64,000 nt of DNA from Candidatus Pacearchaeota archaeon (GCA_018304025.1 JAGVXA010000004.1:9719-73718); one strand, 5' to 3'. Positions 1 through 54,001 are shown, counted from the stretch's first letter. The notes: generated from the sequence alone by a model not told the origin. Numbers and translations: made by a program.

Positions 1-522
1 AAGATAAGTTTTCAAATCTTCTCCTAAATTCGAGGATAAAATAAACAATCTGTCCTTTCCGCCTTTTCCACGCCGAACCCACCCAGTATTTTCCGCGAAA
101 TTCACGTCATCAACTTTCAAATTCACAATTTCGCTGACTCGCAGTCCGGAAGAATAGAGCAAGGAAACAATCAGCCGTGATTTTTCAGCGTCAGAAAAAT
201 CAATAAGTCTTCTGACTTCTTCCTTCGACAAAACTTCCGGCAATTTCCTGTCTTTTTTCGGCAGAGGAATTTTGTCAAATTCCTTGTCTAAAATCTGCTT
301 GAAGAAAAATTTTAGCGACGCCGCAGCCAGCATGATTGTATTTTTCGACTTAGTGTCGAACATTTCTCCCAAATATTTTTTGGCGTCGTCCTGATTCACC
401 TCCGACGGTTTCTTCTCTGCGCTCTGCAAAAATTTCTCGACAAAAAAACTATAGTTCCGAACAGTCAACGGAGAAAACCCGCGAATTCTCAACTCTGTTT
501 TTAATTTTTCTATTTCTTCCAT
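1..522 (-). CDS. Tyrosine recombinase XerC/XerD-like (N-terminal SAM-like domain plus start of catalytic domain); C-terminus runs off the window edge
   Basis: Reverse-strand translation from the ATG at 522 gives MEEIEKLKTELRIRGFSPLTVRNYSFFVEKFLQS...LPEVLSKEEVRRLIDFSDAEKSRLIVSLLYSSGLRVSEIVNLKVDDVNF...GKGRKDRLFIL. This matches the Xer integrase core-binding domain and the start of the catalytic domain (LYxtGLRxSEl...GKGnKeR). There is no stop codon before position 1. Confidence 0.55.
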   Translation of the reverse strand, partial: MEEIEKLKTELRIRGFSPLTVRNYSFFVEKFLQSAEKKPSEVNQDDAKKYLGEMFDTKSKNTIMLAAASLKFFFKQILDKEFDKIPLPKKDRKLPEVLSKEEVRRLIDFSDAEKSRLIVSLLYSSGLRVSEIVNLKVDDVNFAENTGWVRRGKGGKDRLFILSSNLGEDLKTYL

Positions 523-4439: not shown

Positions 4440-4571
4440 TGCGGGGAGTAGGATTCGAACCCACGAAGGCACTAAGCACACAAGATTTCTCAAGGAAATC
4501 TCATCTTAAATTTTCCCAACGGAAAACCGACTTCTTAAGTCTTGCCCGTTTGACCACTCCGGAATCCCCGC
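4440..4571 (-). tRNA. tRNA-Leu(TAA) with ~47-nt anticodon-loop intron
   Basis: On the minus strand the acceptor stem GCGGGGA pairs with TCCCCGC. A 3-bp D-stem (CCG/CGG) with a long D-loop is typical of class II tRNAs. The anticodon stem CAAGA with loop CTTAAG(A) gives anticodon TAA. Its pairing strand TCTTG appears only ~47 nt downstream, implying an intron at 37/38. The T-arm GTGGG-TTCGAAT-CCTAC and a long variable arm follow. No CCA is encoded, and an oligo-T (ATTTTTATTT) follows the 3' end. Confidence 0.6.
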
Positions 4572-10548: not shown

Positions 10549-11349
10549 ATGACAGTAAAATCATTGAAAAGAACACAAGGAAAAATACCGAGAGAAAGAT
10601 TTTATAAAAATCCGGCAGCCCACATATCAGAAGAAAAGCGGGCGTATTTGTGTTCTCCAGAAGCCAGAAAAAAATATGTAGACATTTCTTACGAAGAAGC
10701 AGAAAAGCTCGGGCAACTAGAAGAATTTTATCGTTTGTTTGCATTGGGCGAGCTGGCTCATCTCGCCGCGACAGGCGCCAGCGGAGAATCAGGCAAATTT
10801 GATTATTACGCAAAAGAATTCGACAGCATGCACGATAAAATCGCCAGAAAAAACACAGGATTAGTTTACAAAATGATTGGTGGGCAGCCTAAAACAGATC
10901 TTGACGATTTAGAATCAGAAGGATTTTATGCTTTGGCAAGAGCAATAGATAAGTTTAATCCATGGTCAGGATATCACTTTTCAACTTATGCCTGCTTTGC
11001 AATAATTCGCGCCGTCGGCAGAAGCAAAAAAAAGCAGTATAGAAACAAAGAAAGATTTAGGCTTTTAACAGATCCTTCCGCAGCATTGGACATTCCAGTA
11101 GAAAATTACGAGCTGTCTTCAGACAATACAGAACGTTTCCTTAAAAACCTCCCAAAGATTTTGATAAACCCAGATGTCCTAGATTTTCTCGATGCTGAAG
11201 TTATATCATCGCGATTTCCAAAAACAGGCGAAAAAGAAAGTCTCGAGTCAATAGGCAGGAGAATTGGTTTGTCAAAAGAAAGAGTCAGGCAGATTCAGAA
11301 CAAAGCATTAGTAAAATTAAGATTCAAATTAGAAGAGTTAGTAGTTTAA
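10549..11349 (+). CDS. Sigma-70 family RNA polymerase sigma factor-like protein (regions 2 and 4); alternative start 10489
   Basis: GFYALARAIDKFNPWSGYHFSTYACFAIIRAV resembles sigma-70 region 2.2-2.4 (GLmkAveKFdp.rGykFSTYAtwwIRqai). LESIGRRIGLSKERVRQIQNKALVKLR resembles region 4.2 (LEEvGkqfgvTRERIRQIEaKALRKLR). Confidence 0.5.
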   Translation: MTVKSLKRTQGKIPRERFYKNPAAHISEEKRAYLCSPEARKKYVDISYEEAEKLGQLEEFYRLFALGELAHLAATGASGESGKFDYYAKEFDSMHDKIARKNTGLVYKMIGGQPKTDLDDLESEGFYALARAIDKFNPWSGYHFSTYACFAIIRAVGRSKKKQYRNKERFRLLTDPSAALDIPVENYELSSDNTERFLKNLPKILINPDVLDFLDAEVISSRFPKTGEKESLESIGRRIGLSKERVRQIQNKALVKLRFKLEELVV

Positions 11350-11639: not shown

Positions 11640-11930
11640 AGAATTTATTTTAAAGTGCGCTATTTAAACTTTTTTGAAAACCGATATTGTAAACTTCTCG
11701 GGATAAATTTTGAATTCTCTGCTGTCATTAAATTTCTAAGGTTTATATAAACAGAATAAAATGAGATACCTGCGATTAATCGAGTTCAAGATAATTATCT
11801 GTAATCTGATATCTTTGACAAAAAAGAAATTTTGTTTTATCTCGTTAACTTGACAGTATCTTGAAAACCGCAGAATCATCTAATCTCTAGCAATTCGAAT
11901 TCGGACAATCATTCTGTTGTTTTCACAAAT

Positions 11931-15365: not shown

Positions 15366-15575
15366 ATGTCAAAAACAACACAGGAAATAAACTACGATTA
15401 TTTTATGGAAGCAGATATTAGCGGATTTATCGGAGAGTGGATTGCAGTTTGTGAAAATAAAATTATCGCCCATGGGAGAAACTTGAAAGAAGTTGTAGAA
15501 CATGCAAAAAAAGTTTCTCAAGGAAAGAAATTCCTTCTTGCTCGCGTGCCAAGCAAAGAGGCGATGATATTCTAG
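15366..15575 (+). CDS. Small protein, DUF5678-like (putative antitoxin-like)
   Basis: The segment GEWIAVCENKIIAHGRNLKEVVEHAKK...KFLLARVP resembles short archaeal/bacterial antitoxin-like proteins. The call is weak. Confidence 0.3.
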   Translation: MSKTTQEINYDYFMEADISGFIGEWIAVCENKIIAHGRNLKEVVEHAKKVSQGKKFLLARVPSKEAMIF

Positions 15576-15744: not shown

Positions 15745-15905
15745 TTTCAGAAGCAGTGCGATACTGTAAACTCATCAGGATAAATCCTCCAAGTTGTCAT
15801 ATCTTAAACCTCCAAGGCATATCAACAACGACGATAAATCAAATGCAGATAATTATTTTGAATTCTTGATGAAACAGAAACTTTGTCATGTCTTGCTGTC
15901 TTGAC
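15745..15905. repeat. ~160-bp dispersed repeat, copy A (copy B at 28135..28300; partial third at 28626..28690)
   Basis: About 85% identity over ~160 bp, including gatactgtaaact(c/t)atcaggataaa...caagttgt(c/t)atatctta...gataaatcaaat(g/c)cagataattatttt...gaaacagaaa...tttgtcatgtct. Confidence 0.65.
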
Positions 15906-15955
15906 AAGTATCCAGAAGCACTCAAATTTATATATTCGAAAAATCAAATTGTTTT

Positions 15956-17066: not shown

Positions 17067-17324
17067 TTAATCATAAACTCTTCCTCTCTTGTCTATATCT
17101 GAAATAAGAAGCGCGTTTTTTTCATCAAAAACAACATAAAGAATCCTGTAACTTCCAACTCTTACTCTGAAGACTTTCTCTTTTCTTCCACCAACTCTTT
17201 TCCTGTCTTTAGGATAAGGATTCACTGCTAACGAATTTATTTTATCATTTATCCTGTTGTATAAATCGTCATCACAATCTCTAAGAAATTTCTTGGAGTT
17301 ATTTGAAAACTCTAGTTTTAGCAT
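17067..17324 (-). CDS. relE: RelE/ParE-family toxin
   Basis: The C-terminal RVGSYRILYVVFDEKNALLISDIDKRGRVY matches the RelE core (vgdYRiiY...lihRkdvY). It overlaps the upstream antitoxin ORF by 26 nt. Confidence 0.65.
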   Translation of the reverse strand: MLKLEFSNNSKKFLRDCDDDLYNRINDKINSLAVNPYPKDRKRVGGRKEKVFRVRVGSYRILYVVFDEKNALLISDIDKRGRVYD

Positions 17325-17514
17325 TTTTTCTCTCTTTTTCTAGTTCTTCTAAAGAAATAGTTTTCCCTTCTTCAAATTCTATTAAACTTTCATCTAATCT
17401 TTCTTCTTCCTCAGGAGTCAAAACACAATCCGCGTCTATCATGTGGCTTTTAATAAAATCCAATTCTGCCTTTATCATGTCTAATTTGCTTATTATTATT
17501 CTTTCGTTTTCCAT
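17299..17514 (-). CDS. Putative antitoxin partner of RelE (71 aa, acidic)
   Basis: It lies immediately upstream and overlaps the relE-like gene. It is small and acidic, with a helical C-terminus. Confidence 0.45.
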   Translation of the reverse strand: MENERIIISKLDMIKAELDFIKSHMIDADCVLTPEEEERLDESLIEFEEGKTISLEELEKERKNAKTRVFK

Positions 17515-23519: not shown

Positions 23520-23597
23520 ATAATTCTTTTCATCCCCCCACTTTTAAACTTTCCGCTTATTACTATTTTATAATTACACAATTACGGCAAATCAAAA

Positions 23598-23703
23598 CTC
23601 TCCCCTCCCTTTTTCGCTTCGCTCAAAACCCCTCCCCCAAATTCCCCAATTCCCCAACCCCAAAACCTCCCCCAATCAAAAGTTTTAATCCCTGCGTTTG
23701 TCG
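23598..23703. repeat. C-tract-rich (C4A2-like, G4-forming on minus strand) intergenic element + conserved leader caaaagttttaatccctgcgtttgtc
   Basis: The sequence is cccctccctttttcgcttcgctcaaaacccctcccccaaattccccaattccccaaccccaaaacctcccccaatcaaaagttttaatccctgcgtttgtc. Related copies occur at 24972..25030, 26216..26344 and 26963..26996. Confidence 0.6.
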
Positions 23704-23772
23704 TCAAATTAAAGGAGTTGCAAAAATCAGAATCATCCCAAAAGTTTAATATCCTATACGGCAATTAATTGT

Positions 23773-24630
23773 ATGATAAGTTTTATTTTAGCATGCTCAG
23801 ATGATCCCCTCAAACAAATAACAGAATGTCTGGATGTAACAGGACGAATCGAAAAAGAGTGTGAAAAAAATTCAAAGATAACTCTTGATTTATCTAGACT
23901 GGAATGGATTTTGCCCTGTTCTGCTTTGATTCTAAGCAATAAAATAAGCGAAGTCGCAGGGAAAGGATGTGCAATAACATTCATCAAACCAGAGAAACCT
24001 CAGGTAAAAAATTATCTCGAAAGTGTCGGCTTTCCGTTAGGAGGAGTTGGCACAAATGCAACTTACATGCCGATACATCACTTTAGCAGAAAAAAAGGCG
24101 AAGACTCAACCAAAATAATCGAAAAAGAAATGGAAGAGATTTACAGTGTTGTAGAAAAAAACTTGCCTTCCGAATTAAGCAGCGGAATTTATTATTTGCT
24201 TGGAGAACTTTCTGACAACATTGACCAGCATTCAAATTTTACCATTGTGTCTATAATGGTGCAGTATTACAAAAAGAAGGGGCATATAGATATTGGGGTT
24301 TTAGATAATGGCGAGACTATTCCAGGAGTATTCGAAAAAAATGGCATAAAATTCGAGAGAGATGAAGAAGCCATTAAAATGGCTTTGCAGGGAATCTCAA
24401 CAAAAGAAGGAGAAATAGGAAGGGGAAAGGGGCTGATAACATCTAAACGTTTGGTTCAGAAAGGTTTGAACGGAGAATTTTTTATTTTATCACGAAAGGG
24501 ATTTGTCAAAGCAGTAGGAGAGAAAACAATTTTTAACGAACTCGGCGGAAGATCTTTCAAAGGAACTTTAATTTACATGCGTTTTTCAGACCCAAGAAAA
24601 GGTTTAAATATTTACAAGTATGTAGAATAA
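23773..24630 (+). CDS. STAS-like N-domain fused to GHKL (histidine-kinase-like/RsbW-like) ATPase
   Basis: The N-terminal ITLDLSRLEWILPCSALILSNKI is STAS-like. The C-terminal GHKL boxes are LGELSDNIDQHS (N box), GVLDNGETIP (G1) and GRGKGL (G2). Confidence 0.5.
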   Translation: MISFILACSDDPLKQITECLDVTGRIEKECEKNSKITLDLSRLEWILPCSALILSNKISEVAGKGCAITFIKPEKPQVKNYLESVGFPLGGVGTNATYMPIHHFSRKKGEDSTKIIEKEMEEIYSVVEKNLPSELSSGIYYLLGELSDNIDQHSNFTIVSIMVQYYKKKGHIDIGVLDNGETIPGVFEKNGIKFERDEEAIKMALQGISTKEGEIGRGKGLITSKRLVQKGLNGEFFILSRKGFVKAVGEKTIFNELGGRSFKGTLIYMRFSDPRKGLNIYKYVE

Positions 24631-24631
24631 C

Positions 24632-24913
24632 ATGGTTTTACAAATTTCTTTATTTGAATATTTTGGAAGATTTATAGTCACTAGAAACGCGATGTCAAGG
24701 TTTCTGGATGAACTTAGCCGCGCTTCAGATAAAAACATTATCGTCGATTTTAAGGGAACTGAGTTTATTTCCCGATCCTGTGCAGACGAGTATATCCGGA
24801 GAAGAATTATTTTTAAAAAAAACATAACGGAAATTAATGTTAGCCCAACTGTTCTCTCCATGTTTAAATTAGTCAGAAGCCAGTATAAGAAAAATATGGG
24901 TTTAACAGCTTAA
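24632..24913 (+). CDS. DUF4325-like STAS-domain protein
   Basis: The segment IIVDFKGTEFISRSCADEYI matches the DUF4325/STAS-like pattern (IdFkGVefisrSFadE). It lies 1 nt after the GHKL gene. Confidence 0.5.
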   Translation: MVLQISLFEYFGRFIVTRNAMSRFLDELSRASDKNIIVDFKGTEFISRSCADEYIRRRIIFKKNITEINVSPTVLSMFKLVRSQYKKNMGLTA

Positions 24914-25109
24914 CTTCTCTTAGACAATTCATAAACAAACGGCGTAATCGCATCCTCTTTTCCATCTCAAAAACGCCGGCGCAAAAACCCCCAACCCCCC
25001 AAATTCCCCAAACCCAAATTCCCCAAAATCAAAAAAGCTGCAGAAGAAAGTTTTATATAGCACATTAACCAAAAGTTAACATACATTAACTAATAGTTAA
25101 TATAACCAA

Positions 25110-25679
25110 ATGAAACCATCTAAAGAACAGGAAATAATTCGGAGAATATTCAAGGACTTTCAAACTTCCTACAATAGCCGGAGCATTAGCAAGCTAGTTG
25201 GACTTAGCCACGTGGGAGCTTTCAAAATTTTAAAAAAAATAGAAAAAAAAGGAATTGCATCCTCAAAAAAAATAGGAAACGCCGTCATCTATTCGTTAAA
25301 CCTTGCTAACCCCCTCGCACGAAAAGAAATAGAATTATCTCTCCTGATAGATGCTCAAAACCATAAACGCTGGCTGGAAGAATTCAAGGATTTAGAAAAT
25401 ATCTCTGACTTTGTTGTTTTGTTTGGCTCTGTTATCCGCAGCGAATCTTCTGCAAAAGACATAGATGTATTAGTCGTCGCAGAAAGAAGCAATTTCAGCA
25501 AAATAAAAGAAATAATCAAAAAGAGAAATGAAGTTTCAAATAAAAAGATTCATTTGATTCTGCAGGAGCCGGAAGAATTTAAAAAAGACTTAGACAGCAG
25601 AAACAAAGCAATCTTGGAAATAATCAAAACAGGAATTGTTTTGTTTGGACAGGACAATTTTGTACGGAAAATAAAATAA
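25110..25679 (+). CDS. Minimal nucleotidyltransferase (MNT) with N-terminal wHTH
   Basis: The NTase motif is VLFGSVIRSESSAKDIDVLVV (GSxxRGxxxxxSDIDllV). An upstream near-palindrome TTAACTAATAGTTAA is a candidate operator. Confidence 0.6.
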   Translation: MKPSKEQEIIRRIFKDFQTSYNSRSISKLVGLSHVGAFKILKKIEKKGIASSKKIGNAVIYSLNLANPLARKEIELSLLIDAQNHKRWLEEFKDLENISDFVVLFGSVIRSESSAKDIDVLVVAERSNFSKIKEIIKKRNEVSNKKIHLILQEPEEFKKDLDSRNKAILEIIKTGIVLFGQDNFVRKIK

Positions 25680-26188
25680 TGACTCACGCGTCTAACAAAG
25701 TTGAATGGTGCTTAAGAAAAGCCAGAGAAGAGAAAGAGCAGGAAAAGAAGCACAGAGGATTAGTCAAAATAAATCCCGATGTCGAAGAAGCCAGAAAGCA
25801 TATCGAGAAAGCAGAACACAATCTTCGGGCTATAAGTTATTTTAGCGTCGGAGGATTCTCTGACTGGAGTATGAGCGCAGCCTTCTATTGTATTTATCAC
25901 TGTTTCTTGGCAATAAGCATAAACTTAGGTTACGAAAGCAGAAACCAGGAATGCACAATTGCACTGATAAAATATCTTAAAGAAAAAGAAGAAATAGAAA
26001 TTGAAGACAGATTTATCAGCGCTTTGGAAATCTACGACGAACAGGGGCGGCACGAGTCAAATATAATTGAAAAAAGAGAATTATTTACTTACGGAACCAC
26101 AGTTTCAGCAGACAACAGCGAAATTGAGAAAAATGTCCAATTATGCAAAGACTGCTTGTATCAAACAAAGAAAATTATTTTCAAGTGA
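25679..26188 (+). CDS. HEPN-domain protein (partner of MNT)
   Basis: Its start overlaps the MNT stop. The helical core SMSAAFYCIYHCFLAISINLGY resembles COG2250-type HEPN. The canonical Rx4-6H is not obvious. Confidence 0.5.
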   Translation: MTHASNKVEWCLRKAREEKEQEKKHRGLVKINPDVEEARKHIEKAEHNLRAISYFSVGGFSDWSMSAAFYCIYHCFLAISINLGYESRNQECTIALIKYLKEKEEIEIEDRFISALEIYDEQGRHESNIIEKRELFTYGTTVSADNSEIEKNVQLCKDCLYQTKKIIFK

Positions 26189-26215
26189 TTTTTTCATTAC
26201 TCTTCTTTTCCCCAG

Positions 26216-26344
26216 GAAACGCCGACGCAAAAACCAACAATTTCTCCCCCTCAACTTCCCTCCCAAATCCCCCAACCCCAAAACTCCCCAATTCCCCAAA
26301 ATCAAAACCTCCCCCAATCAAAAGTTTTAATCCCTGCGTTTGTC
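26216..26344. repeat. C-tract-rich intergenic element, copy upstream of DUF4258/DUF2283 pair
   Basis: It reads aaacgccgacgcaaaaacc...cccccaacttccctcccaaatcccccaaccccaaaactccccaattccccaaaatcaaaacctcccccaatcaaaagttttaatccctgcgtttgtc. Its 3' half is ~95% identical to 23640..23703. Confidence 0.6.
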
Positions 26345-26414
26345 ATCTAAAAAAGGAGTTGCAAATCAAAAGCACAGTCTTAACATTTATTAACTTCTTT
26401 AGTTTGTTCAACAA

Positions 26415-26708
26415 ATGGTTTATTTATTTGAAGCAGTTGATAAAACCGGCAGAAAAATACATTTGTCAAAAGAAAGATGGACGCATATAAGAAAGAAACA
26501 TCCAGAAGTTGTAGATATAGACGAAATTGAAGAAACCTTAAAAAATCCCGATAAAGTTACTTTTCCTAAATTAGACGAAAACGCTGGCTTGTATTACAAA
26601 TATTTTAAACACAGACACTCACCTTACAAATATCTTCTCGTTTTAGTTAAATATTTAAACGGCGAAGGTTTTGTTATAACCTCTTATTACGAGGATAAAA
26701 TAAAATGA
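26415..26708 (+). CDS. DUF4258-like small protein (putative toxin of DUF4258/DUF2283 pair)
   Basis: It is 97 aa, with HLSKERWTHIRKKHPEV. Its stop overlaps the downstream DUF2283 gene. Confidence 0.4.
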   Translation: MVYLFEAVDKTGRKIHLSKERWTHIRKKHPEVVDIDEIEETLKNPDKVTFPKLDENAGLYYKYFKHRHSPYKYLLVLVKYLNGEGFVITSYYEDKIK

Positions 26709-26950
26709 CAGACACAATATACGAAATTTATTATGATAAAGAAGCAGATTTCTTAGAAGTATTTTTCGGAGAGCCGACACCGTGTTATGCTGAAGAACCA
26801 GAAGAAGGCGTTTTTATAAGAAAAGATGAAAACACAAACGAAGTAAAAAGTGTTGGAATACTTTCCTTCGGAAAGAGAGCGTATCTTCTTAAAAAATTAT
26901 TGCAAAATTTAAATAAAACCCTTCCTAACGAAATAGATATATCTGATTGA
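26705..26950 (+). CDS. DUF2283-family small protein
   Basis: The segment EIYYDKEADFLEVFF matches the DUF2283 signature (YDxEaDaLyI). Confidence 0.55.
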   Translation: MTDTIYEIYYDKEADFLEVFFGEPTPCYAEEPEEGVFIRKDENTNEVKSVGILSFGKRAYLLKKLLQNLNKTLPNEIDISD

Positions 26951-27195
26951 ACATTTGAATCTCATCTCCCCATCCCCCCAAATTCCCCAACCCCTCCAAG
27001 AAATTTTCTCTTCATCATATTAAACCAAACCAAAAGTTTTATATGTTCTCATAATCTAAGTATCTTGTAAGTGAACCGGCTCCATAAAAGGTTTGTGTAT
27101 GCAGACTGGCCAGCGCGTATGCGTGTGATTGGTTGGGAAGGCCGCTACTCACTTACATTAATTTACCATTATTATTAATATTCTTTGTCTGCATA

Positions 27196-27435
27196 TCACT
27201 CAACTTCCCATTTATATTCCTTCTCAATTAATTGCTCTCTCAGCGCAAAAAGATATTCAGAATAATTCCGGCTGCGCAGTTCTTTGTCACCAATCAATCT
27301 CCTTAGCGCCCTGTGATCTTCGCACGCGTTTTGAATAATAACATCATTCTGCCCGTCGTAGATTCTCCCGCTCAAAAAAGCCAGAAAACTATTTGCTCTC
27401 ATCAGCAATTTCCGTTCTTCTGTTTTTCTTTTCAT
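27196..27435 (-). CDS. Small hypothetical protein, paralog of 28350..28592
   Basis: The true ATG is at 27435. The track's MEGFC extension is the translated SD GGAGGG. It has ~40% identity to 28350..28592 and an identical upstream 45 nt. Confidence 0.4.
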   Translation of the reverse strand: MKRKTEERKLLMRANSFLAFLSGRIYDGQNDVIIQNACEDHRALRRLIGDKELRSRNYSEYLFALREQLIEKEYKWEVE

Positions 27436-27502
27436 ACAAAATCCCTCCAATCAATAGTTTTAAACTTTCCGTTTATTGTCTAAGAAAGAGATTACAAAAC
27501 AT

Positions 27503-27904
27503 TCAGAAAGAAACCTGCCCAGGTTCTAATCTTTTTACTTGGGTTTTATCAAAATGCTTGTCAAAACTTACAATAGACAACGAATATTTTTTGCAAACAG
27601 CTAATTGAATAGAATCATCAAAATCAATCTGAAACTCTTTCATATCTTTAACAGCAGTTGATTCATCAGAAGTTACAGTATCCACCCGGATAATTTTACT
27701 TCGGGTAATAAATGAAAGAAAACTCTCCAGCGCTTCTGTCTTGTTATTTCTAGCCATGATTACTTCAATAGAATGCAAGGTGAAAGAACTGACGTAAAAA
27801 GAGTCTTTGCTTTTGTCAATGCTCTTCAAAAAAGATTCGCATTCATCCGCCCTTTCTTGATTAAGGAGAACCTCTAAGAATATATTTGTATCGATTAAAT
27901 ACAT
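27503..27904 (-). CDS. vapC: PIN-domain nuclease (VapC-like toxin)
   Basis: The N-terminal MYLIDTNIFLE is the PIN hallmark, and there are conserved acidic residues. An antitoxin-like gene lies immediately upstream. Confidence 0.65.
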   Translation of the reverse strand: MYLIDTNIFLEVLLNQERADECESFLKSIDKSKDSFYVSSFTLHSIEVIMARNNKTEALESFLSFITRSKIIRVDTVTSDESTAVKDMKEFQIDFDDSIQLAVCKKYSLSIVSFDKHFDKTQVKRLEPGQVSF

Positions 27905-27905
27905 T

Positions 27906-28103
27906 TTACCACTTATCTTTTATTTCGTGCTGTAAATCAACTGACTTTTTATTTACATTTTTTAACGCGCCGCGCCAAGACAATTTCTCGTCTTTTTCCG
28001 GGATAATTTCAATTTCAATAATCATTCCATTTTTCAAGTTCACTCTACTCAAAGGCACAAAATGCCCGTTCACAAATTTAACTTTTATTTCTTTAGGTTC
28101 CAT
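27906..28103 (-). CDS. DUF104-like antitoxin (AF2212/PRC-barrel-like) partner of PIN
   Basis: The segment VKFVNGHFVPLSRVNLKNGMIIEIEI matches the DUF104 pattern (aiYeNGvlkPLepvdLpEGteveI). It lies 1 nt upstream of the PIN gene. Confidence 0.5.
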   Translation of the reverse strand: MEPKEIKVKFVNGHFVPLSRVNLKNGMIIEIEIIPEKDEKLSWRGALKNVNKKSVDLQHEIKDKW

Positions 28104-28134
28104 AATCGCTTTAGCGCGTTTACATTTATATAAT

Positions 28135-28300
28135 TTTCGTTTTTCTGATACTGTAAACTTATCAGGATAAACCCTTCAAGTTGTTATATCTTAATCTATC
28201 TTAAACCTCAAAACATATCAATAACGAAGATAAATCAAATCCAGATAATTATTTTAGTTATTAACGAAACAGAAAATTTTTGTCATGTCTCGTTATCTTA
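28135..28300. repeat. ~160-bp dispersed repeat, copy B
   Basis: See copy A. It lies between the DUF104-PIN operon start and the 28350 gene end. Confidence 0.65.
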
Positions 28301-28349
28301 ACAATATCCCTTTTTCTTTTCTCAAATCTCTCTTCCAAAAATCTCCTCT

Positions 28350-28592
28350 TCATTCTCTCTCAATCTTCCACTTCCTTTCATACTCATCCAACTGGTACTT
28401 CAATGCAGAAATATAAGCATTATAATTTTGATTGCGTAATTTTTTATCACAAACTAATCTCCTCAATCTTCTGCTGTCCCGGCACATTCTTTCAAGAATC
28501 GCGCTGTCTTGGTCGTCGTGTATTCCGCTTCCAAATAAATAAAGAATGTCATCTGCCCTTTCCCTTAGCTGTTCTTCTGTTCTTCTATCCAT
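28350..28592 (-). CDS. Small hypothetical protein, paralog of 27196..27435
   Basis: It has the same upstream SD/promoter block. The ATG is at 28592. Confidence 0.4.
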   Translation of the reverse strand: MDRRTEEQLRERADDILYLFGSGIHDDQDSAILERMCRDSRRLRRLVCDKKLRNQNYNAYISALKYQLDEYERKWKIERE

Positions 28593-28867
28593 GTAAAATC
28601 CCTCCAATCAATAGTTTTAAACTTTCCGCTTGTCAGAATTGGCTCCGTAGAATAACTCCTCCAAGTTGTTACATTTAGTTATAATTTATTGCTACTTGCA
28701 AAAACAACATTTGCAGTCTAAGATGCTGTCCAGTTATCGCGAGATAGATTATAAAAAAGCACCAGAAAAACGAAGAGGTTTCTTTCTAATTATATTTAAA
28801 AGTTGATGATAATTTGACAGTATCCGCAAACAAATAAATTTATATACATCTTTCAATCCCAAAGAAA

Positions 28868-43846: not shown

Positions 43847-46453
43847 ATGAAAAAGAGAACGCAGCTGTTCGCAGTATCTTTCACACTTCTAATTTTAACA
43901 TCTGCCATCGCGTCAGCAGGAGACGTCGCATATCTTTACAGAAAAACATTTCAAATAGACAAGAATATAATTGATGTTTTCGAAGAGCTCGGTTTGACAG
44001 TTGATTATATTCAGGAAAAAAATCAGCCGTCAAGTTACAGCGGATACAGATTAATTTTTGTTGGAGACGAAAACTTCAGGGCAAATATTCCAGTTAACAA
44101 TTACCCTTCTGTAATCGTAAGCTACTACGACGCAGAAAGATGGGGATTGACAGACGAGGAAGGAATCAGCCAGATGGGAGCAAACGCCCCTATGAGTGTT
44201 GTAATAAACAGCCATCAAACTCAAGTTTATACGCAGGCATTAATTCAAGAGACAGTTGCAGTTCCTTATTATTATCTTGACATCGAGGACAAAACACCTG
44301 GAATGCAGCAGGTAGCGGCAACAGAAACAACAGAATCTGGATTCAAAATTGGCGACGTGATTTCTTACGCGCCCATCGGAACCCAGATGTCAAATGGAAA
44401 AACACAGCAGGCAGAACTCTGCTTTTTCGGGATAGTCGAATCAGATTACTGGACACCTGCAGCAAAAGAGTTGTTCGTCGATTGCGTGAATTACGTGGCA
44501 GCAGAATGTTCGCAGGACTCAGACTGCCCGGCGCCAACAACCTCCGCGCCGTTTTGCGTCGGAAATGACGTTTACTTTACGCAATATTCAAACACTTGTG
44601 AAAACACTTTGCTGGCGCGCTGCGTTGCGCACGAGCAGGATATATTCAGCAAAACCTGCCCTTACAGCTGCCTTGACGGGCAATGCGCAGGCGAATGCAA
44701 CAACAACGCAGACTGCGACGACAGCAACTCTTCAACAGAAGACATCTGCCATAATCCTCAAACACCCCAATCATTTTGCACTAACGAACCAATAGAATGT
44801 TCTTATAATTCAGACTGCGGAACAGACGGACTAATCAACCAACCAACTTGCTCAGGACTAAATGTCGTTCAAGATTACAAAACATTTACTTGCAATAATC
44901 CTGGCACAGCACAATCATCCTGCTCTTCTTCAATCTCACAGCAAATCTTAGAAACATGCTCAGACATTTGCGTTAATGGAGAATGCAAAGATATAGAATG
45001 CTACAACAACGCAGATTGCGGCACAGACGGATTAATTGGAGAATTATTTTGCACCGGAGACAACGTATTCCGGAATTTCAAAACATTTACTTGCAATAAT
45101 CCTGGCACACCCGAATCTTCTTGCTCTTCTTCAATCTCTCCGCAATTAATCCAGACTTGCCAAGAGACTTGTCTTGAAGGAATCTGCGTCGATATAGAAT
45201 GCAACAACAACGCAGATTGCGGCACAGACGGACTAATCAACCAGCCAACTTGCTCAGGACTAAATGTCGTTCAAGATTACAAAACATTTACCTGCCACAA
45301 CCCAGCAACACCGTCGTCATCCTGCTCTTCCTCAATCACACAGCAAATCTTAGAAACATGCTCAGACATTTGCGTCAATGGTGCATGCCATGACGTAGAA
45401 TGTGATGAAAACTCAGACTGCAACGACGCAAATCCTTTAACGCTGGACGAATGCATCAACCCTGGAACAATAATAAGCGACTGCAGAAACACTCCGATTA
45501 ATTGCAACAACAATTTGGACTGCGGATTCACAGGATTTTTCGGAAATGAATTCTGCTCTAACGACGACATCGTAAAAAATTATCAGCTTGCAGTTTGCCA
45601 CAACCCAAACACTTTGAGTTCATCATGTGATTTGCAAATCTCGCAAGAGACAATCCTCTCTTGCCCATACGCATGCCACGACGCAGCGTGCATTAGATGC
45701 GACGGAAACTCAGACTGCAACGACCAAGATTCAGACACATTAGACATCTGCCGCAATCCAGGTGAATTAAACTCGTACTGTGAAAATCAAAACACAACTC
45801 CGCAAAACATAGACTGCTACACCAACGCAGACTGCGGAACAAACTCCCCAGTCAGCCAATTATTCTGCTCGCTCAACAACGTAAATCAATTATTCCTGAC
45901 ATGGACTTGCAATAATCCTGCGACAATTCAATCATACTGTTCATCAAGCTTCCAGCAGCAAATAATCCAAACCTGCCCAGACATCTGCCAAAACGGGCAG
46001 TGCATCGGAATTACTTGTTACAACAACGCAGACTGCGGAACAGACGGACTAATCAACCAACCAACTTGCTCAGGATTAAATATCGTCCAGGATTACAAAA
46101 CATTTACCTGCCACAACCCAGCAACACCGTCGTCATCCTGCTCTTCCTCAATCTCTCCGCAGTTAATTCAAATTTGCAGTTATGCGTGCGCAGGAGGAAG
46201 TTGTATAGGACAATGCATTCCAGGACAAACTCAGCAATGCGGAAATTCAAATGTCGGAGAATGCGAGTTCGGAACAAAGACATGTAATTCTTACGGTTCT
46301 TGGAACAGCGAATGCGTCGGTGAAGTTTTGCCTTCAAATGAAATCTGCGACGGAAAAGACAACGACGCCTGTCTGTTCAAACGAATGCTCTTCATCAGGA
46401 ACAAGTCAATGTTACGGCGCAGGTTACAGAGTTTGCGGAAACTTCGACGCTGA
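43847..46453 (+). CDS. Large secreted protein: shared N-terminal domain + >=8 tandem 8-Cys repeats + MopE-like C-terminus; reading frame breaks near 46365 (likely frameshifted/pseudogene or assembly error)
   Basis: It has the paralogous N-domain and tandem ECxNNADCGTDGLINQPTCSGLNVVQDYKTFTCxNPxTPxSSCSSSI repeats. After EICDGKDND the frame degenerates into an Arg/Leu-rich tail, while the homologous C-terminal domain continues in another frame (46251..46688). Confidence 0.55.
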   Translation: MKKRTQLFAVSFTLLILTSAIASAGDVAYLYRKTFQIDKNIIDVFEELGLTVDYIQEKNQPSSYSGYRLIFVGDENFRANIPVNNYPSVIVSYYDAERWGLTDEEGISQMGANAPMSVVINSHQTQVYTQALIQETVAVPYYYLDIEDKTPGMQQVAATETTESGFKIGDVISYAPIGTQMSNGKTQQAELCFFGIVESDYWTPAAKELFVDCVNYVAAECSQDSDCPAPTTSAPFCVGNDVYFTQYSNTCENTLLARCVAHEQDIFSKTCPYSCLDGQCAGECNNNADCDDSNSSTEDICHNPQTPQSFCTNEPIECSYNSDCGTDGLINQPTCSGLNVVQDYKTFTCNNPGTAQSSCSSSISQQILETCSDICVNGECKDIECYNNADCGTDGLIGELFCTGDNVFRNFKTFTCNNPGTPESSCSSSISPQLIQTCQETCLEGICVDIECNNNADCGTDGLINQPTCSGLNVVQDYKTFTCHNPATPSSSCSSSITQQILETCSDICVNGACHDVECDENSDCNDANPLTLDECINPGTIISDCRNTPINCNNNLDCGFTGFFGNEFCSNDDIVKNYQLAVCHNPNTLSSSCDLQISQETILSCPYACHDAACIRCDGNSDCNDQDSDTLDICRNPGELNSYCENQNTTPQNIDCYTNADCGTNSPVSQLFCSLNNVNQLFLTWTCNNPATIQSYCSSSFQQQIIQTCPDICQNGQCIGITCYNNADCGTDGLINQPTCSGLNIVQDYKTFTCHNPATPSSSCSSSISPQLIQICSYACAGGSCIGQCIPGQTQQCGNSNVGECEFGTKTCNSYGSWNSECVGEVLPSNEICDGKDNDACLFKRMLFIRNKSMLRRRLQSLRKLRR

Positions 46454-46688
46454 TTCATGTCTTGAATGGTCTTCGGTAACAACATGTAATTACGGCTGCG
46501 CAAATGGAAATTGCAATCCACAACCCCCAATTACTTGCACAAATGAATGCTCTTTCACAGGCCAAAGGCAATGCACAAGCGCAGGTTACAGAATCTGCGG
46601 AAACTTCGACGCTGATTCATGTTTAGATTGGTCTCTGATAACTCAATGCGGTTTAGGAGCCGCGTGCACTTCAGGATACTGCGTTTAA
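46251..46688 (+). pseudogene. Out-of-frame C-terminal domain of the 43847 gene (Cys-rich YRVCGNFDADSCLxWS repeats)
   Basis: The translation ...CSNECSSSGTSQCYGAGYRVCGNFDADSCLEWSSVTTC...GYRICGNFDADSCLDWSLITQCGLGAACTSGYCV is about 80% identical to the C-terminus of 46749..48428. It sits +1 relative to the upstream frame. Confidence 0.5.
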
Positions 46689-46748
46689 TTTGCTACTCAT
46701 GAAGATGACATTTTGCCAACAAAATTTAAAAACCTCTTGCAATCCTAA

Positions 46749-48428
46749 TTGTTACTCCAAAAAATGACACCAAATCTAAGCGATAACAAAAAAGCACAAT
46801 CTTCAATTCTGGTATTTTTATTTATACTCATTTTATTTCTGCTTGCAAGTGCTGCTCTCGTCTTTTTATTATTCTCTTATTCTCCTTCAACTGTAAAAAA
46901 AGAAATCACTAATTCAAATTACAATGAAATTGAACAAGACGCAGTTTTCATTCCAATAAGCAAAGATATAATAGACACAGACGAGGACAGCGTGGAAGAC
47001 ATCGAGGATAACTGCCCGCTCCATTTTAATCCGTTCCAAGAGGACAAAGACGAAGACGGAAAAGGAGACGCCTGCGACGTCTCAAGGTCAAATAGAAACA
47101 GTCACGACGATGACGACGAAATAGAGTGTTCTTCTAATTCAGACTGCGGCACAGGCGCATTAACAGGAAATAGATTTTGCCAATCAGGCGACGTCTATCA
47201 AAATTTCAAAAATCACACTTGCAATAATCCCGGTAAAACATCTTCATCCTGCTCTTCTTCAACAACCCCTAAATTAATTCAAGATTGTATCTTCGGATGC
47301 GCTAACGGAACTTGCATTGTTCCGGCTTGCAGCACAAACACAGACTGCGACGACAGCAATAATTACACAGAAGACATCTGCAAAAATCCAGGCACATCTC
47401 AAAGCTATTGCGAGCACAATCCTATTGCTTGTTTGAAAAATATGGACTGCGGATTTAACGAATTAATCGGCAATTTATTTTGTTCTTCAAATAATTTAAA
47501 TGTGTTGCAATTATTCCAGTCTTGGATTTGTCTTTCTCCGGGCACAGCGCAATCCTCTTGCTCTTCTTCAACAACTCCCCAAATAATCCAAACATGCTCA
47601 GACATTTGCGTTAATGGAGAATGCAAAGATATAGAATGTTACAACAACGCAGATTGCGGCACAGACGGATTAATCAACCAGCCAACTTGCTCAGGACTAA
47701 ATGTCGTTCAAGATTTTAAAATATTCCGTTGCAATAATCCTGGAACTCCGCAATCATCTTGTTCTTTCTCGCTCTGCCAGGAAATCCAGCAGTTATGTTC
47801 AGATGCTTGCATTGCAGGAATTTGCGCCGATATAGAATGTTATAACAACGCAGATTGCAATGACGCAAATCTTCTAACAGAAGACATTTGCCACAATCCA
47901 GCAACACCAGAATCTTACTGCACCAACGAATTAATATCAGAATGTATTCCAGGACAAACTCAGCAATGTGGAACTTCTAATATTGGAGAATGCGATTTCG
48001 GAACAAAGACATGTAATTCTTACGGTTCTTGGAACAGCGAATGCGTCGGTGAAGTTTTGCCTTCAAATGAAATCTGCGACGGAAAAGACAACGACGGGCA
48101 AGTTTGTTATTCAGGAACAGGACAATGCAGAAAAGCTGGAAACTTTGTTTGTTCATCAAATGGATTAACAACAAATTGTAATGCGGTTGCTGGAACACCA
48201 ACAGCAGAAATCTGCGACGGAAAAGACAACGACTGCGACGGTTCAACAGACGAAAATAATGTCTGCGCATCTGGATGTACAAGCGAATGTCCAGTATTTG
48301 AAGCAAGACAATGCACAAGTGGCGGTTACAGAGTCTGCGGAAACTTCGACACTGATTCATGCCTTGATTGGTCTCTGATAACTCAATGCGGCTTGGGTTC
48401 AACATGCTCAGGAGGCTACTGTGTTTAA
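46749..48428 (+). CDS. Secreted/membrane-anchored protein with thrombospondin type-3-like Ca-binding repeat, 8-Cys tandem repeats and MopE-like (CDGKDNDCDG) repeats
   Basis: It has an N-terminal TM, then DNCPLHFNPFQEDKDEDGKGDACD (TSP3 consensus DNCPxxxNPxQxDxDxDGxGDACD). Its repeats are homologous to those of 43847. It also has EICDGKDNDGQ / EICDGKDNDCDGSTDENN. Confidence 0.6.
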   Translation: MLLQKMTPNLSDNKKAQSSILVFLFILILFLLASAALVFLLFSYSPSTVKKEITNSNYNEIEQDAVFIPISKDIIDTDEDSVEDIEDNCPLHFNPFQEDKDEDGKGDACDVSRSNRNSHDDDDEIECSSNSDCGTGALTGNRFCQSGDVYQNFKNHTCNNPGKTSSSCSSSTTPKLIQDCIFGCANGTCIVPACSTNTDCDDSNNYTEDICKNPGTSQSYCEHNPIACLKNMDCGFNELIGNLFCSSNNLNVLQLFQSWICLSPGTAQSSCSSSTTPQIIQTCSDICVNGECKDIECYNNADCGTDGLINQPTCSGLNVVQDFKIFRCNNPGTPQSSCSFSLCQEIQQLCSDACIAGICADIECYNNADCNDANLLTEDICHNPATPESYCTNELISECIPGQTQQCGTSNIGECDFGTKTCNSYGSWNSECVGEVLPSNEICDGKDNDGQVCYSGTGQCRKAGNFVCSSNGLTTNCNAVAGTPTAEICDGKDNDCDGSTDENNVCASGCTSECPVFEARQCTSGGYRVCGNFDTDSCLDWSLITQCGLGSTCSGGYCV

Positions 48429-52913: not shown

Positions 52914-52985
52914 ATTGATTCAATTCAATTTGTTAGTTTATGTTCATTAAAATAGGGGCGCTTCTCAAGATTCATTTTGTATTAA

Positions 52986-53260
52986 TTATTCCCCTCCCAA
53001 TTTAATTTTATCTCACAACCCAACCGAACTCTTTCCCCAATTTATTTTTGTCTATCGCAATAAATCCCCAACCCCTCTTGAATTTTCTCCCCAATAATTA
53101 TTCCCCTCCCCATTTAATTTTATCTCACAACCCAACCGAACTCTTTCCCCAATTTATTTTTGTCTATCGCAATAAATCCCCAACCCCTCTCGAATTTTTC
53201 TCCCCATTAATTATTCCCCTCCCCAAAACTCCCCACCCATCTTTAAATCCTCACCCCATT
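52986..53260. repeat. Tandem ~113-bp direct repeat (2.3 copies) rich in C4-5 tracts (CCCCAA-like)
   Basis: The unit ttattcccctccc(c)a(a)tttaattttatctcacaacccaaccgaactctttccccaatttatttttgtctatcgcaataaatccccaacccctct repeats at 52986 and 53099. A partial third copy follows. Confidence 0.7.
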
Positions 53261-53263
53261 CCC

Positions 53264-54001
53264 CTAAAATAATTTCCTGAAATTCCCCTCAATCTCCCTC
53301 TCAACTTCCTTCAAACTCTTCCCCTTAATTTCAGCGATTTTACGGTAACTCTCGACGACAAAAGCCGGTTCGTTCTTTCCCTCTCGCAAAGGATGCAAAA
53401 AAGGAGAATCTGTCTCGCACAATAACTGCGAAAGCTCAACGCGCCGAACCAAGTTCTGAAAATGCTCATTATATTTAACAGAAGCAGGCACACTGAAACT
53501 CCAGCCGTTAGCAGAAATCCTGTCAATTAATTTGAACCCTCCCGAAAAGCAATGCATCACAATTTTTTTCGCGCCAGATTCCTCAAGCATCTCAACACAT
53601 TCTTTCTCAGCTTTTCGCGAATGCACAATCAACGGCTTGTTTAATTCAATAGCCAGCTCAATAAATTTCTGAAAAACTTTTTTCTGCTTTTCCCTATCAG
53701 CTCCGCTTTCAAGAAAATCCAGTCCCACTTCACCAATAGCAATAATCTTGCCGGCGTTCGCCCGAATAAACTCAATTTCCTCGTCGATATCTCTCAAGAT
53801 TTCAGTCGGATGCACGCCCAAAGCGCCCCTAATTTCTTTATACTTCTTAGCCAATTCAATTACTTCTTTATTCTCCGAAATTCCAATTCCGTTGGCAACA
53901 ATCAATTTGACATTTTCTTTCTTCGCTCTCTCAACTACTTCCCCAACTTCTCCAGCGCTGTAAAACCGCGAATCCAAATGGCAATGCACGTCGATGAACA
54001 T
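53264..54001 (-). CDS. tatD: TatD-family metal-dependent hydrolase/DNase
   Basis: The N-terminal MFIDVHCHLD and further conserved His/Asp/Glu of the TIM-barrel TatD family identify it. It is 245 aa. Confidence 0.7.
   Translation of the reverse strand: MFIDVHCHLDSRFYSAGEVGEVVERAKKENVKLIVANGIGISENKEVIELAKKYKEIRGALGVHPTEILRDIDEEIEFIRANAGKIIAIGEVGLDFLESGADREKQKKVFQKFIELAIELNKPLIVHSRKAEKECVEMLEESGAKKIVMHCFSGGFKLIDRISANGWSFSVPASVKYNEHFQNLVRRVELSQLLCETDSPFLHPLREGKNEPAFVVESYRKIAEIKGKSLKEVEREIEGNFRKLF

Follow-up and report, generated by a model that had tools for sequence, protein, structure and literature searches.

Integron attachment (attC) sites are imperfect inverted repeats, one strand of which folds into a hairpin, and the integrase IntI is not required in clusters of attC sites lacking an integron integrase (CALINs). 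Cyanobacteria and other bacteria carry short tandem repeats of the CCCCAAT/CCCCAATT type (short tandemly repeated repetitive sequences, STRR). In spite of their tiny genomes, the DPANN archaea maintain variable patches of toxin-antitoxin (TA) and defence genes. Integrons and CALINs also exist in archaea, DPANN included, and TA cassettes are common in them (PMC9668308). Repeated sequences able to form G-quadruplexes (G4) have been described in Methanomicrobiaceae, in non-coding DNA near gene starts or ends, with strain-specific simple repeats noted (PMC8044849), and pilin recombination in Neisseria gonorrhoeae requires a small RNA that starts in the G4 of pilE, in cis and in one orientation (PMC3547852). 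Here we analyzed, in a 64-kb stretch of DNA (the window) from the DPANN member Candidatus Pacearchaeota archaeon, an islet of TA-type modules separated by copies of a small repeat unit, four of which carry tracts of C or G depending on the strand (elements E1 to E4) and two of which carry an orphan gene (par1 and par2).

The explanation that best accounts for the locus, and behind which we put about half of our confidence, is a strain-variable TA islet in which self-contained modules alternate with a small minus-strand repeat unit at the module junctions. Although a variable TA patch is ordinary, the organization of this one is unusual, since its modules alternate with a unit bearing either an orphan gene or a G4-capable array. 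The window sits in a 76-79-kb contig from the Rifle aquifer groundwater metagenomes (PRJNA268031), the islet is covered by the NCBI locus tags J4402_01355 to J4402_01405, the proteins of this genome include MBS3088406-MBS3088416, and the sequence of this genome that was examined amounts to ~74 kb (the window and a further 10 kb).

The tract elements and the paralog promoters form one repeat family

In the window, whose archaeal features include an intron-containing tRNA at 4440-4571, a TFB-recognition element (BRE) with TATA box of the form AAAG-TTTAAATA typically lies 32-33 nt before the start codons, and 8 of the 11 occurrences of AAGTTTAWAW stand at this distance 5' of an ATG. Because the box holds this place before most start codons, most mRNAs are apparently leaderless.

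The elements were delimited as clusters of at least four C4+ tracts. Four such clusters occupy four consecutive intergenic gaps, all with the C on the plus strand. On the minus strand, E1 (23600-23725) comprises a tract array at 23629-23675, a TATA-like box at 23679-23689 (AAAGTTTTAAT on the plus strand) and, at 23660-23725, a copy of a ~60-nt repeat named here the P-block. E2 (24971-25057, minus strand) has a T5-GCGCCGGCG-T5 block at 24971-24989, a tract array at 24988-25024 and a TATA-like box at 25047-25057; E3 (26217-26367, minus strand) a T5-GCGTCGGCG-T3 block at 26217-26235, an array at 26246-26317, a TATA-like box at 26321-26331 and a P-block copy at 26302-26367; and E4 (26955-27043, minus strand) an array at 26968-26994 and a TATA-like box at 27033-27043. 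The first-pass annotation had described three C-rich elements, each preceding a plus-strand unit and each holding the leader caaaagttttaatccctgcgtttgtc ... aaaggagttgcaaa. We counted four, E4 lies after the last plus-strand unit and before no plus-strand gene, and the leader is present in E1 and E3 only.

E1 and E3 are 87% identical over 103 nt, and all four elements end in AAAGTTTTAWW, a motif with five occurrences in the window, four of them in E1-E4. A composite pattern of two CCCCAA-type tracts followed by AAAGTTTTA matched five sites in the window, including all four elements, and none in 100 shuffles. Canonical G4 motifs numbered six in the window vs 0.29 expected by shuffling; four of the six are E1-E4, and all six have the G on the minus strand. 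With G4Hunter the elements appeared as regions of 50-81 nt with a mean score of -1.5 to -1.7, and ViennaRNA folds with quadruplex energies predicted a four-layer quadruplex in each of them. By sequence, the elements have the make-up of repeated putative quadruplex sequences (rPQS), with at least four G-runs separated by short loops and repetition within the genome. Tandem Repeats Finder resolved the tracts into degenerate 8-9-nt units CCCCAAATT in 2.7-3.8 copies. Across the 64 kb the cumulative GC skew declines steadily and reaches -8.3; since all G4 motifs have their G on the same strand, the orientation bias of the tracts may reflect strand composition as well as function.

E2 and E3 are the only places of the window with the sequence AAACGCCGRCGCAAAAACC, which in both closely follows the stop codon of the preceding gene. 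In minus-strand orientation this block has the sequence GGTTTTTGCGYCGGCGTTT(TT), i.e. T5-GCGYCGGCG-T3-5, with T-runs on this strand only. Such T-runs are where the archaeal RNA polymerase terminates, and the block looks like an archaeal terminator on the minus strand.

When the elements were aligned on the minus strand with the regions upstream of par1, par2 and the GT2 gene, the leader of E1 and E3 matched, in reverse complement, the block that precedes the paralogs (par1 TTTGTAATCTCTTT-CTTAGACAATAAACGGAAAGTTTAAAACTATTGATTGGAGGGATTTT; E3 TTTGCAACTCCTTT-TTTAGATGACAAACGCAGGGATTAAAACTTTTGATTGGGGGAGGTTTT). A search by nhmmer whose query was the 65 nt preceding par1 gave four window sites, all on the minus strand, namely the query itself, par2 (3e-6), E3 (4.7e-5) and E1 (4.7e-4), and no further P-block hit in 128 kb of strand; E1 and E3 are linked to the par1 and par2 upstream regions over ~56 nt. 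Both par copies of the P-block have an intact promoter. In the copy at 27436-27500 (minus strand) it is GGAAAG-TTTAAAAC, 32 nt before the par1 ATG; the other copy is at 28593-28657 (minus strand), upstream of par2. From the alignment and the nhmmer search, what had been annotated as C-rich spacers, shared leaders and a promoter-like block is therefore one repeat family on two strands, and the practical lesson is that two seemingly different repeats on opposite strands can be the same one.

The promoter-like block had also been ascribed to the GT2 gene. The GT2 promoter region (23520-23561, minus strand, 32 nt before the GT2 ATG) has the core AAGCGGAAAGTTTAAAA in common with the par promoters and then a G6 run. 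Blastn-short matched it to the par promoters over 17-20 nt (95-100% identity, E 1e-4 to 7e-4) and over no more of the P-block, and ten bases of the core are the generic BRE/TATA consensus of the genome. The common block thus holds for the paralogs and, beyond this 17-20-nt core, does not extend to GT2. Between the GT2 TATA box and the GT2 start (23520-23545, minus strand) we observed the G6 run and ATGAAAAGAA, of which the first ten bases are those of par1 and in which a stop follows after five codons; this stretch may be another trace of a par-type unit.

Spacing ties the tracts to the promoter block. The par1 gene has its ATG 21 nt downstream of the AAAAC in the TATA box, and the G-tract array of E1-E3 begins within ~5 nt of the equivalent position. 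On the minus strand E4 reads ATGATGAAGAGAAAA, resembling the par1 start ATGAAAAGAAAAA, 17 nt after the AAAAC of its box; a start of the form ATGATGAA(G/A)AG is kept at 17 nt after the box in E4 and at 21 nt in L139, a contig of a related population presented below, and G-tracts come next in both. Because of the P-block with its TATA box, the position of the tracts and the T-block, the elements look like small minus-strand transcription units made of a promoter, a G-rich stretch and a terminator.

Gene content of the islet

Pfam bore out the annotated gene list at the domain level, that is a GHKL/STAS-like pair (weakly), an MNT-HEPN pair, a DUF2283 pair, a DUF104-PIN pair and two paralogs. Module 1 consists of a GHKL-like ATPase (23773-24630, plus strand; HATPase_c, E 4.8e-5) and a STAS-like DUF4325 protein (24632-24913, plus strand; E 1e-3), both matches being below the Pfam cut-off. 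Module 3 had been read as a DUF4258/DUF2283 pair: its second gene does encode a DUF2283 protein (26705-26950, plus strand; Pfam), while for the toxin gene (26415-26708, plus strand) Pfam gives a PBECR2 nuclease-like protein of the barnase/RelE-like clan and not DUF4258 itself. With its own promoter this module forms a conserved unit at 26380-26951 (plus strand). Module 4, on the minus strand, has the VapBC-like type II arrangement, as a PIN toxin gene (27503-27904; Pfam 1.6e-13; named VapC family toxin by NCBI) lies directly downstream, at 1 nt, of a small AF2212-like/DUF104 antitoxin gene (27906-28103; Pfam 1e-6). A TATA-like box lies within ~40 nt of the ATG at every module, for example AAAAGTTTAATAT ~28 nt 5' of the ATG in module 1 and TTTATTAA at -29 in module 3.

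Module 2 encodes an MNT-like nucleotidyltransferase (25110-25679, plus strand; NTP_transf_2, Pfam 3e-7) and a HEPN protein (25679-26188, plus strand; Pfam 3e-7). The stop codon of the first gene overlaps the start codon of the second, which is the type VII gene arrangement of MNT-HEPN systems; PADLOC gave a match to PDC-M05A (2e-16), NCBIfam a match to MntA (1.5e-3) below its cut-off, and the GS...DxD motif was read by eye in the MNT protein. In the HEPN protein the place of the Rx4-6H motif reads SRNQECT and holds no His as read by eye, and this protein may be inactive or non-canonical. Directly 5' of the MNT start we observed a 21-nt tandem duplication (ACATTAACCAAAAGTTAACAT twice, 25062-25104, plus strand) holding an 11-nt palindrome (TACATTAACTA/TAGTTAATATA), which is probably an operator of the MNT protein, itself endowed with an N-terminal extension.

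The par1 gene (27196-27435, minus strand) encodes a 79-aa orphan protein predicted to be a helical bundle, and par2 (28350-28592, minus strand) its 80-aa paralog, 46% identical. Nothing of this family beyond par1 and par2 was found among 5.8 billion proteins, and neither protein matched Pfam, NCBIfam or PADLOC. An exhaustive HMMER search of 1.84 billion cluster representatives gave one credible remote relative, an 84-aa protein (P0123) in an unrelated operon. AlphaFold models par1 as a three-to-four-helix bundle (predicted local distance difference test score 89.8 for the best model, 50-64 for the other four), and this predicted fold had no significant match among the solved structures of the PDB.

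The locus varies between relatives

We traced GT2 homologues of 64-68% identity to their contigs, and in three relatives other genes were found at the position of the islet. Upstream of GT2, a Pacearchaeota contig (L128) has HicA, a 76-aa partner, several unrelated genes and a ParE pair, without C-tract elements or analogous intergenic repeats (the repeats there are coding); a second relative has a 486-aa gene, and a third (L136) a conjugation-like TraC/TrbC cluster along with methyltransferases. Gene content at this spot thus varies, and the synteny comparison upholds the proposal of a variable TA islet. The large proteins encoded on the right side in the window and in L128 are not homologous, so that this flank offered no anchor for the synteny comparison.

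Within the source population, which occurs in 38-44 samples, all contigs read had the same gene order (two look-ups, 24 contigs each), and over six loci the islet DNA showed a single mismatch (100% identity). Contig L003 is interrupted within E1, near 23690, as expected of an assembler at the E1/E3 repeat. As these six loci, which come from different samples and assemblies, all have the same tract lengths, no instability of the tracts is visible, and phase variation by a change of tract length was rejected on the same observation.

Three short contigs of related populations (L137, L138 and L139) were reached via 90%-identity clusters of islet proteins. L138 matches window 26380-26956 at 81% identity, including the -29 box, both module 3 genes and the stop codon, and its upstream 326 nt are unrelated to the window; the homology therefore starts 13 nt after the P-block of E3. 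L137, from sample 3300025009, is identical to window 26048-26668, all of E3 included (E3 100%), then ~81% identical up to 26950; homology ends at 26951, 1 nt after the stop codon, and from 26952 on, where the window has E4, the contig is unrelated and E4 absent. L139, from another sample (1.8 kb), matches window 28140-27432 at 76% over the promoter, the AF2212-like gene, a frameshifted PIN gene and the par1 P-block. After this P-block it has an ATG at the par1 spacing and then GGCTGGGATGGGGAATGGATGGTTGGGTTTGGGAGGGGGGAATG, i.e. G-tracts, where the contig ends. In addition, a 33-nt direct repeat (94% identical) corresponding to the 5' half of the P-block stands on both sides of the L139 module, 695 nt apart. 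From these three contigs we conclude that the modules are discrete units found in different contexts, with the repeat units lying outside them, at the junctions. We also conclude, from L139, that the combination of P-block and G-tract is older than the source strain.

We searched for the tract pattern in other collections. The loose pattern CCCCAAN{0,1}TTCCCCAAN{0,12}CCCCAA gave at least 120 stretches on genome contigs of unrelated bacteria (cyanobacteria, Saprospiraceae and others), and the source genome was not among the matches listed. On metagenome contigs, the tighter CCCCAAN{0,1}TTCCCCAAN{15,45}AAAGTTTTA gave three matches, all unrelated, the source population being evidently outside the collection. 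Two viral-contig scans and a BLAST of E1 against plasmids gave no match. Within the ~74 kb of the source genome examined, no other intergenic region had an E-type element; the refuting case named in the first-pass annotation, the element ahead of many housekeeping genes, was not encountered in this part of the genome.

Integron features are absent

The islet had been likened to an integron or cassette array, with the remark that attC-like inverted repeats and an adjacent integrase were lacking; this remark was confirmed. Folded as single-stranded DNA, E1-E4 gave -3.4 to -7.5 kcal/mol (z -1.3 to +0.6), no better than shuffles. Their composition is 5-8% G vs 31-32% C, and there is no inverted repeat within them. 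No recombinase gene was found between 20 and 31 kb of the window, whose only tyrosine recombinase, a Xer-like protein of 273 aa (Phage_int_SAM_4 and Phage_integrase), lies at 1-522 (minus strand), cut by the left window end. This gene is complete in L133 (8542-9363), adjoins ribosomal protein genes and stands 23 kb from the islet. Moreover, module 3 is found without E3 in L138 and without E4 in L137, so the putative site is not carried with the module. An integron in the strict sense is refuted.

Proposed organization and alternative explanations

In the strain-variable islet that we favor, each two-gene module would run from its own proximal promoter to its stop codon. The repeat unit would open with the ~60-nt block holding an archaeal BRE/TATA promoter. 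In two copies this promoter would drive an orphan 80-aa gene (par1, par2), and in the other four (E1-E4) a 30-70-nt array of the GGGG(A)ATT type, a potential G-quadruplex, would replace the gene, the E2 and E3 arrays ending in the terminator-like T-block. The G-tract copies may be variants or decayed copies of the par unit. If transcribed, they would be read leftward from the edge of the G-tract and yield short G-rich RNAs, and the modules would not need them for their expression. The same-orientation repeats at every junction would mark, and may promote, module exchange by ordinary recombination.

Several results weigh against this explanation. We observed no rearranged variant within the source population, neither in the two look-ups of 24 contigs each nor in the six loci. 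The first breakpoint of L137, at 26669, falls within the toxin gene and immediately follows 29 nt that do not vary among the three alleles, so this contig is either a true recombinant or an assembly chimera. The P-block is combined with a G-tract in one related locus only, L139, which ends within the tract, and ~74 kb of the source genome was covered. E4 has no T-run after its tract. Finally, AAAG stands immediately 5' of TTTTA on the plus strand in all four elements, as in the BRE consensus of the genome, and the minus-strand BRE is degenerate in E1 and E3 (GCAGGG vs GGAAAG in the paralogs); for these two reasons a rightward promoter is possible.

The strongest alternative, which we regard as unlikely but which carries serious weight, is that the elements are functionless relics, the tracts being microsatellite-like expansions of the GGAGGGATTTT segment in decayed par-type units and thus neutral DNA. 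The tandem units CCCCAAATT do resemble the GGAGGGATTTT of the par promoters, strain-specific simple G4-prone repeats have been reported in archaea (PMC8044849), and no copies outside the population came out of the metagenome scan, the two viral scans or a protein search with the pseudo-open reading frames (ORFs). Neutral decay accounts poorly for the presence of an array, always in the one orientation, in each of four successive gaps, for a G-tract that again follows the P-block in a lineage 24% diverged (L139), and for tract lengths that are identical across six loci.

The possible rightward promoter leads to a further alternative, in which the C-tract would be the upstream element of a rightward BRE/TATA promoter providing a common 5' leader for the next TA operon. 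AAAG-TTTTAWW is found in four of four elements, and four of its five window occurrences are in the islet; in E1 and E3 a conserved AAAGGAGTTGCAAA stands at the expected transcript start, and the E2 box would be a plausible promoter for MNT-HEPN. The AAAGTTTTAWW boxes of E1-E3 lie 93, 62 and 93 nt from the plus-strand ATGs vs the 32-33 nt of the promoters of this genome, which makes the shared plus-strand leader of the first-pass annotation doubtful as well. In addition, E4 has no downstream plus-strand gene, each module has a closer TATA-like box, module 3 in L138 keeps its -29 box and lacks E3, and the leader has its homology with what precedes the par promoters and not with what follows them. 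We consider this alternative unlikely, and the comparison of the two strands favors the minus strand as the transcribed one, both the direction and the existence of transcription being predictions.

The elements could also initiate recombination. The promoter would fire into the G4 tract, with the G-rich strand as non-template, and an R-loop or G4 would cause a nick or a stall leading to module exchange, as at pilE of Neisseria, where the small RNA starting in the G4 is needed (PMC3547852). The spacing between TATA box and tract fits the pilE-type geometry in E1-E3, with the BRE degenerate in E1 and E3, and the minus-strand start is predicted at the tract edge in these three elements; module homology ends at the E3 and E4 edges, and a direct repeat flanks the L139 module. 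Against initiation stand the uniform gene order of the population contigs read, the breakpoint inside a gene, the absence of known donor copies of the modules, and a promoter activity and G4 formation that are predicted only. We consider it rather improbable that the tracts act as initiators. The broader idea that the promoter-plus-G-tract units are a recombination device, in which transcription from the G4 tract would open the DNA at each junction and drive the capture and exchange of TA modules, and would thus form an archaeal cassette system without attC or integron integrase, we judge to be quite improbable.

Coding by the G-rich strand of small Gly/Phe/Trp-rich peptides is very improbable. 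Gene callers do give ORFs of 41 and 46 aa over E1 and E3, and an ATG stands at leaderless distance in E4 (MMKRK...) and L139 (MMKRF...), but frames and lengths vary between copies (17-47 codons), the starts in E1 and E2 lie upstream of the TATA box, the E1 frame stops after 6 codons in E3, and when the ORFs called on the G-rich strand were searched against the protein database, the islet itself gave the only matches. Next to no credence is due to the idea that the locus is an integron-like cassette array or CALIN whose attC-type sites would be the C-rich elements: n+1 repeat elements bracket n plus-strand modules and such systems with TA cassettes are known from archaea (PMC9668308), but there is no hairpin on either strand, no inverted repeat and no adjacent integrase, and the modules carry their own promoters and leave the repeat behind.

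Other features of the window

To the left, the islet adjoins a glycosylation cluster (GT2, DUF2304, three GT4 genes and a flippase), and to the right genes for large secreted proteins. The secreted-protein genes at 43847-48428 contain coding repeats of 201 nt that are rich in Cys (families D1-D10 in the repeat scan). TA-type genes also occur outside the islet, within the glycosylation cluster: a ParE toxin with a 71-aa partner (17067-17514, minus strand) and a DUF5678 protein gene (15366-15575, plus strand), and no C-tract element was observed at either of them. A 266-aa protein encoded at 10549-11349 (plus strand) has bacterial-type Sigma70 region 2 (E 2e-8) and region 4 (E 5e-12), which is odd in an archaeon; it may be horizontally acquired or a repurposed helix-turn-helix protein.

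A dispersed non-coding repeat of ~165-190 nt has copies at 11680-11870, 15756-15921 and 28144-28316, the best pair being 80% identical. Each copy is intergenic, with one end abutting a promoter. As its ends show weak inverted similarity (GATACTGTAAAC ... GTTAACAATATC), the repeat may be an element resembling a miniature inverted-repeat transposable element. The islet had been described as bounded by this repeat, but only one of the three copies (28144-28316) lies in the islet, and it is interior, not at the edge.

Between E4 and the par1 stop, a GC-rich non-coding stretch (27060-27195) has a 9-bp closing stem (GTAAGTGAA...TCACTTAC). It was rejected as a structured RNA, with fold z-scores of -1.27 and -0.12 and no match in Rfam, which had no match in the islet either at the gathering cut-off or at E up to 1. 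In the convergent gap at 52983-53285, between genes for proteins of 885 and 245 aa, we observed a C-rich 112-nt tandem repeat (2.2 copies, 96% matches) with further C-tracts after it; this is a different family from E1-E4, and here too the G is on the minus strand.

Comparison with known systems

If the repeat unit guides module exchange or makes G-rich regulatory RNAs, the locus would represent a new way of organizing TA islets; if the unit is only decayed promoter DNA, it is an ordinary variable TA islet. Its nearest counterparts resemble it to different extents. The STRR have a similar unit, and (CCCCAATT)n arrays are found in many unrelated bacterial genomes. They are regular tandem arrays with no link to a promoter block seen, and this low-complexity likeness is not evidence of common origin. 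Among the genome-contig matches listed (L005-L124), octamer arrays of (CCCCAATT)n or (GGGGAATT)n were observed in cyanobacteria, Saprospiraceae and Moraxella cuniculi (15 tracts). Given this spread over many unrelated bacteria, the tract motif by itself is not diagnostic.

Integrons and CALINs share with the islet an array of small modules mostly in one direction, a repeat at each junction and TA content. The islet differs from them in having no attC hairpin or nearby IntI, in modules that carry their own promoters, and in a repeat that is not carried with the module; the mechanism proposed by analogy with integrons was abandoned on these points. The pilE locus (PMC3547852) has a promoter set to start at a G4 tract beside variable genes, with the G-rich strand as non-template, an arrangement that is predicted for the islet. 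It is, in contrast, a single site with a bacterial sigma-70 promoter and a proven function, whereas the islet has four archaeal sites, deduced from sequence, and no silent donors known. The Methanomicrobiaceae repeats (PMC8044849) are also repeated G4-capable sequences in non-coding DNA near genes, but they have an adjacent complementary C-tract and are spread genome-wide, whereas the islet repeats lack such a complementary tract, are attached to a promoter block and all fall within 3.4 kb. Chromosomal TA and defence islets with VapBC-like, MNT-HEPN-like and DUF2283 pairs resemble the locus in their packed two-gene modules and in a content that varies between relatives, and the islet adjoins a cell-surface glycosylation cluster. 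It departs from them in that its predicted modules are separated by promoter-plus-G-tract repeat copies and two orphan paralogs.

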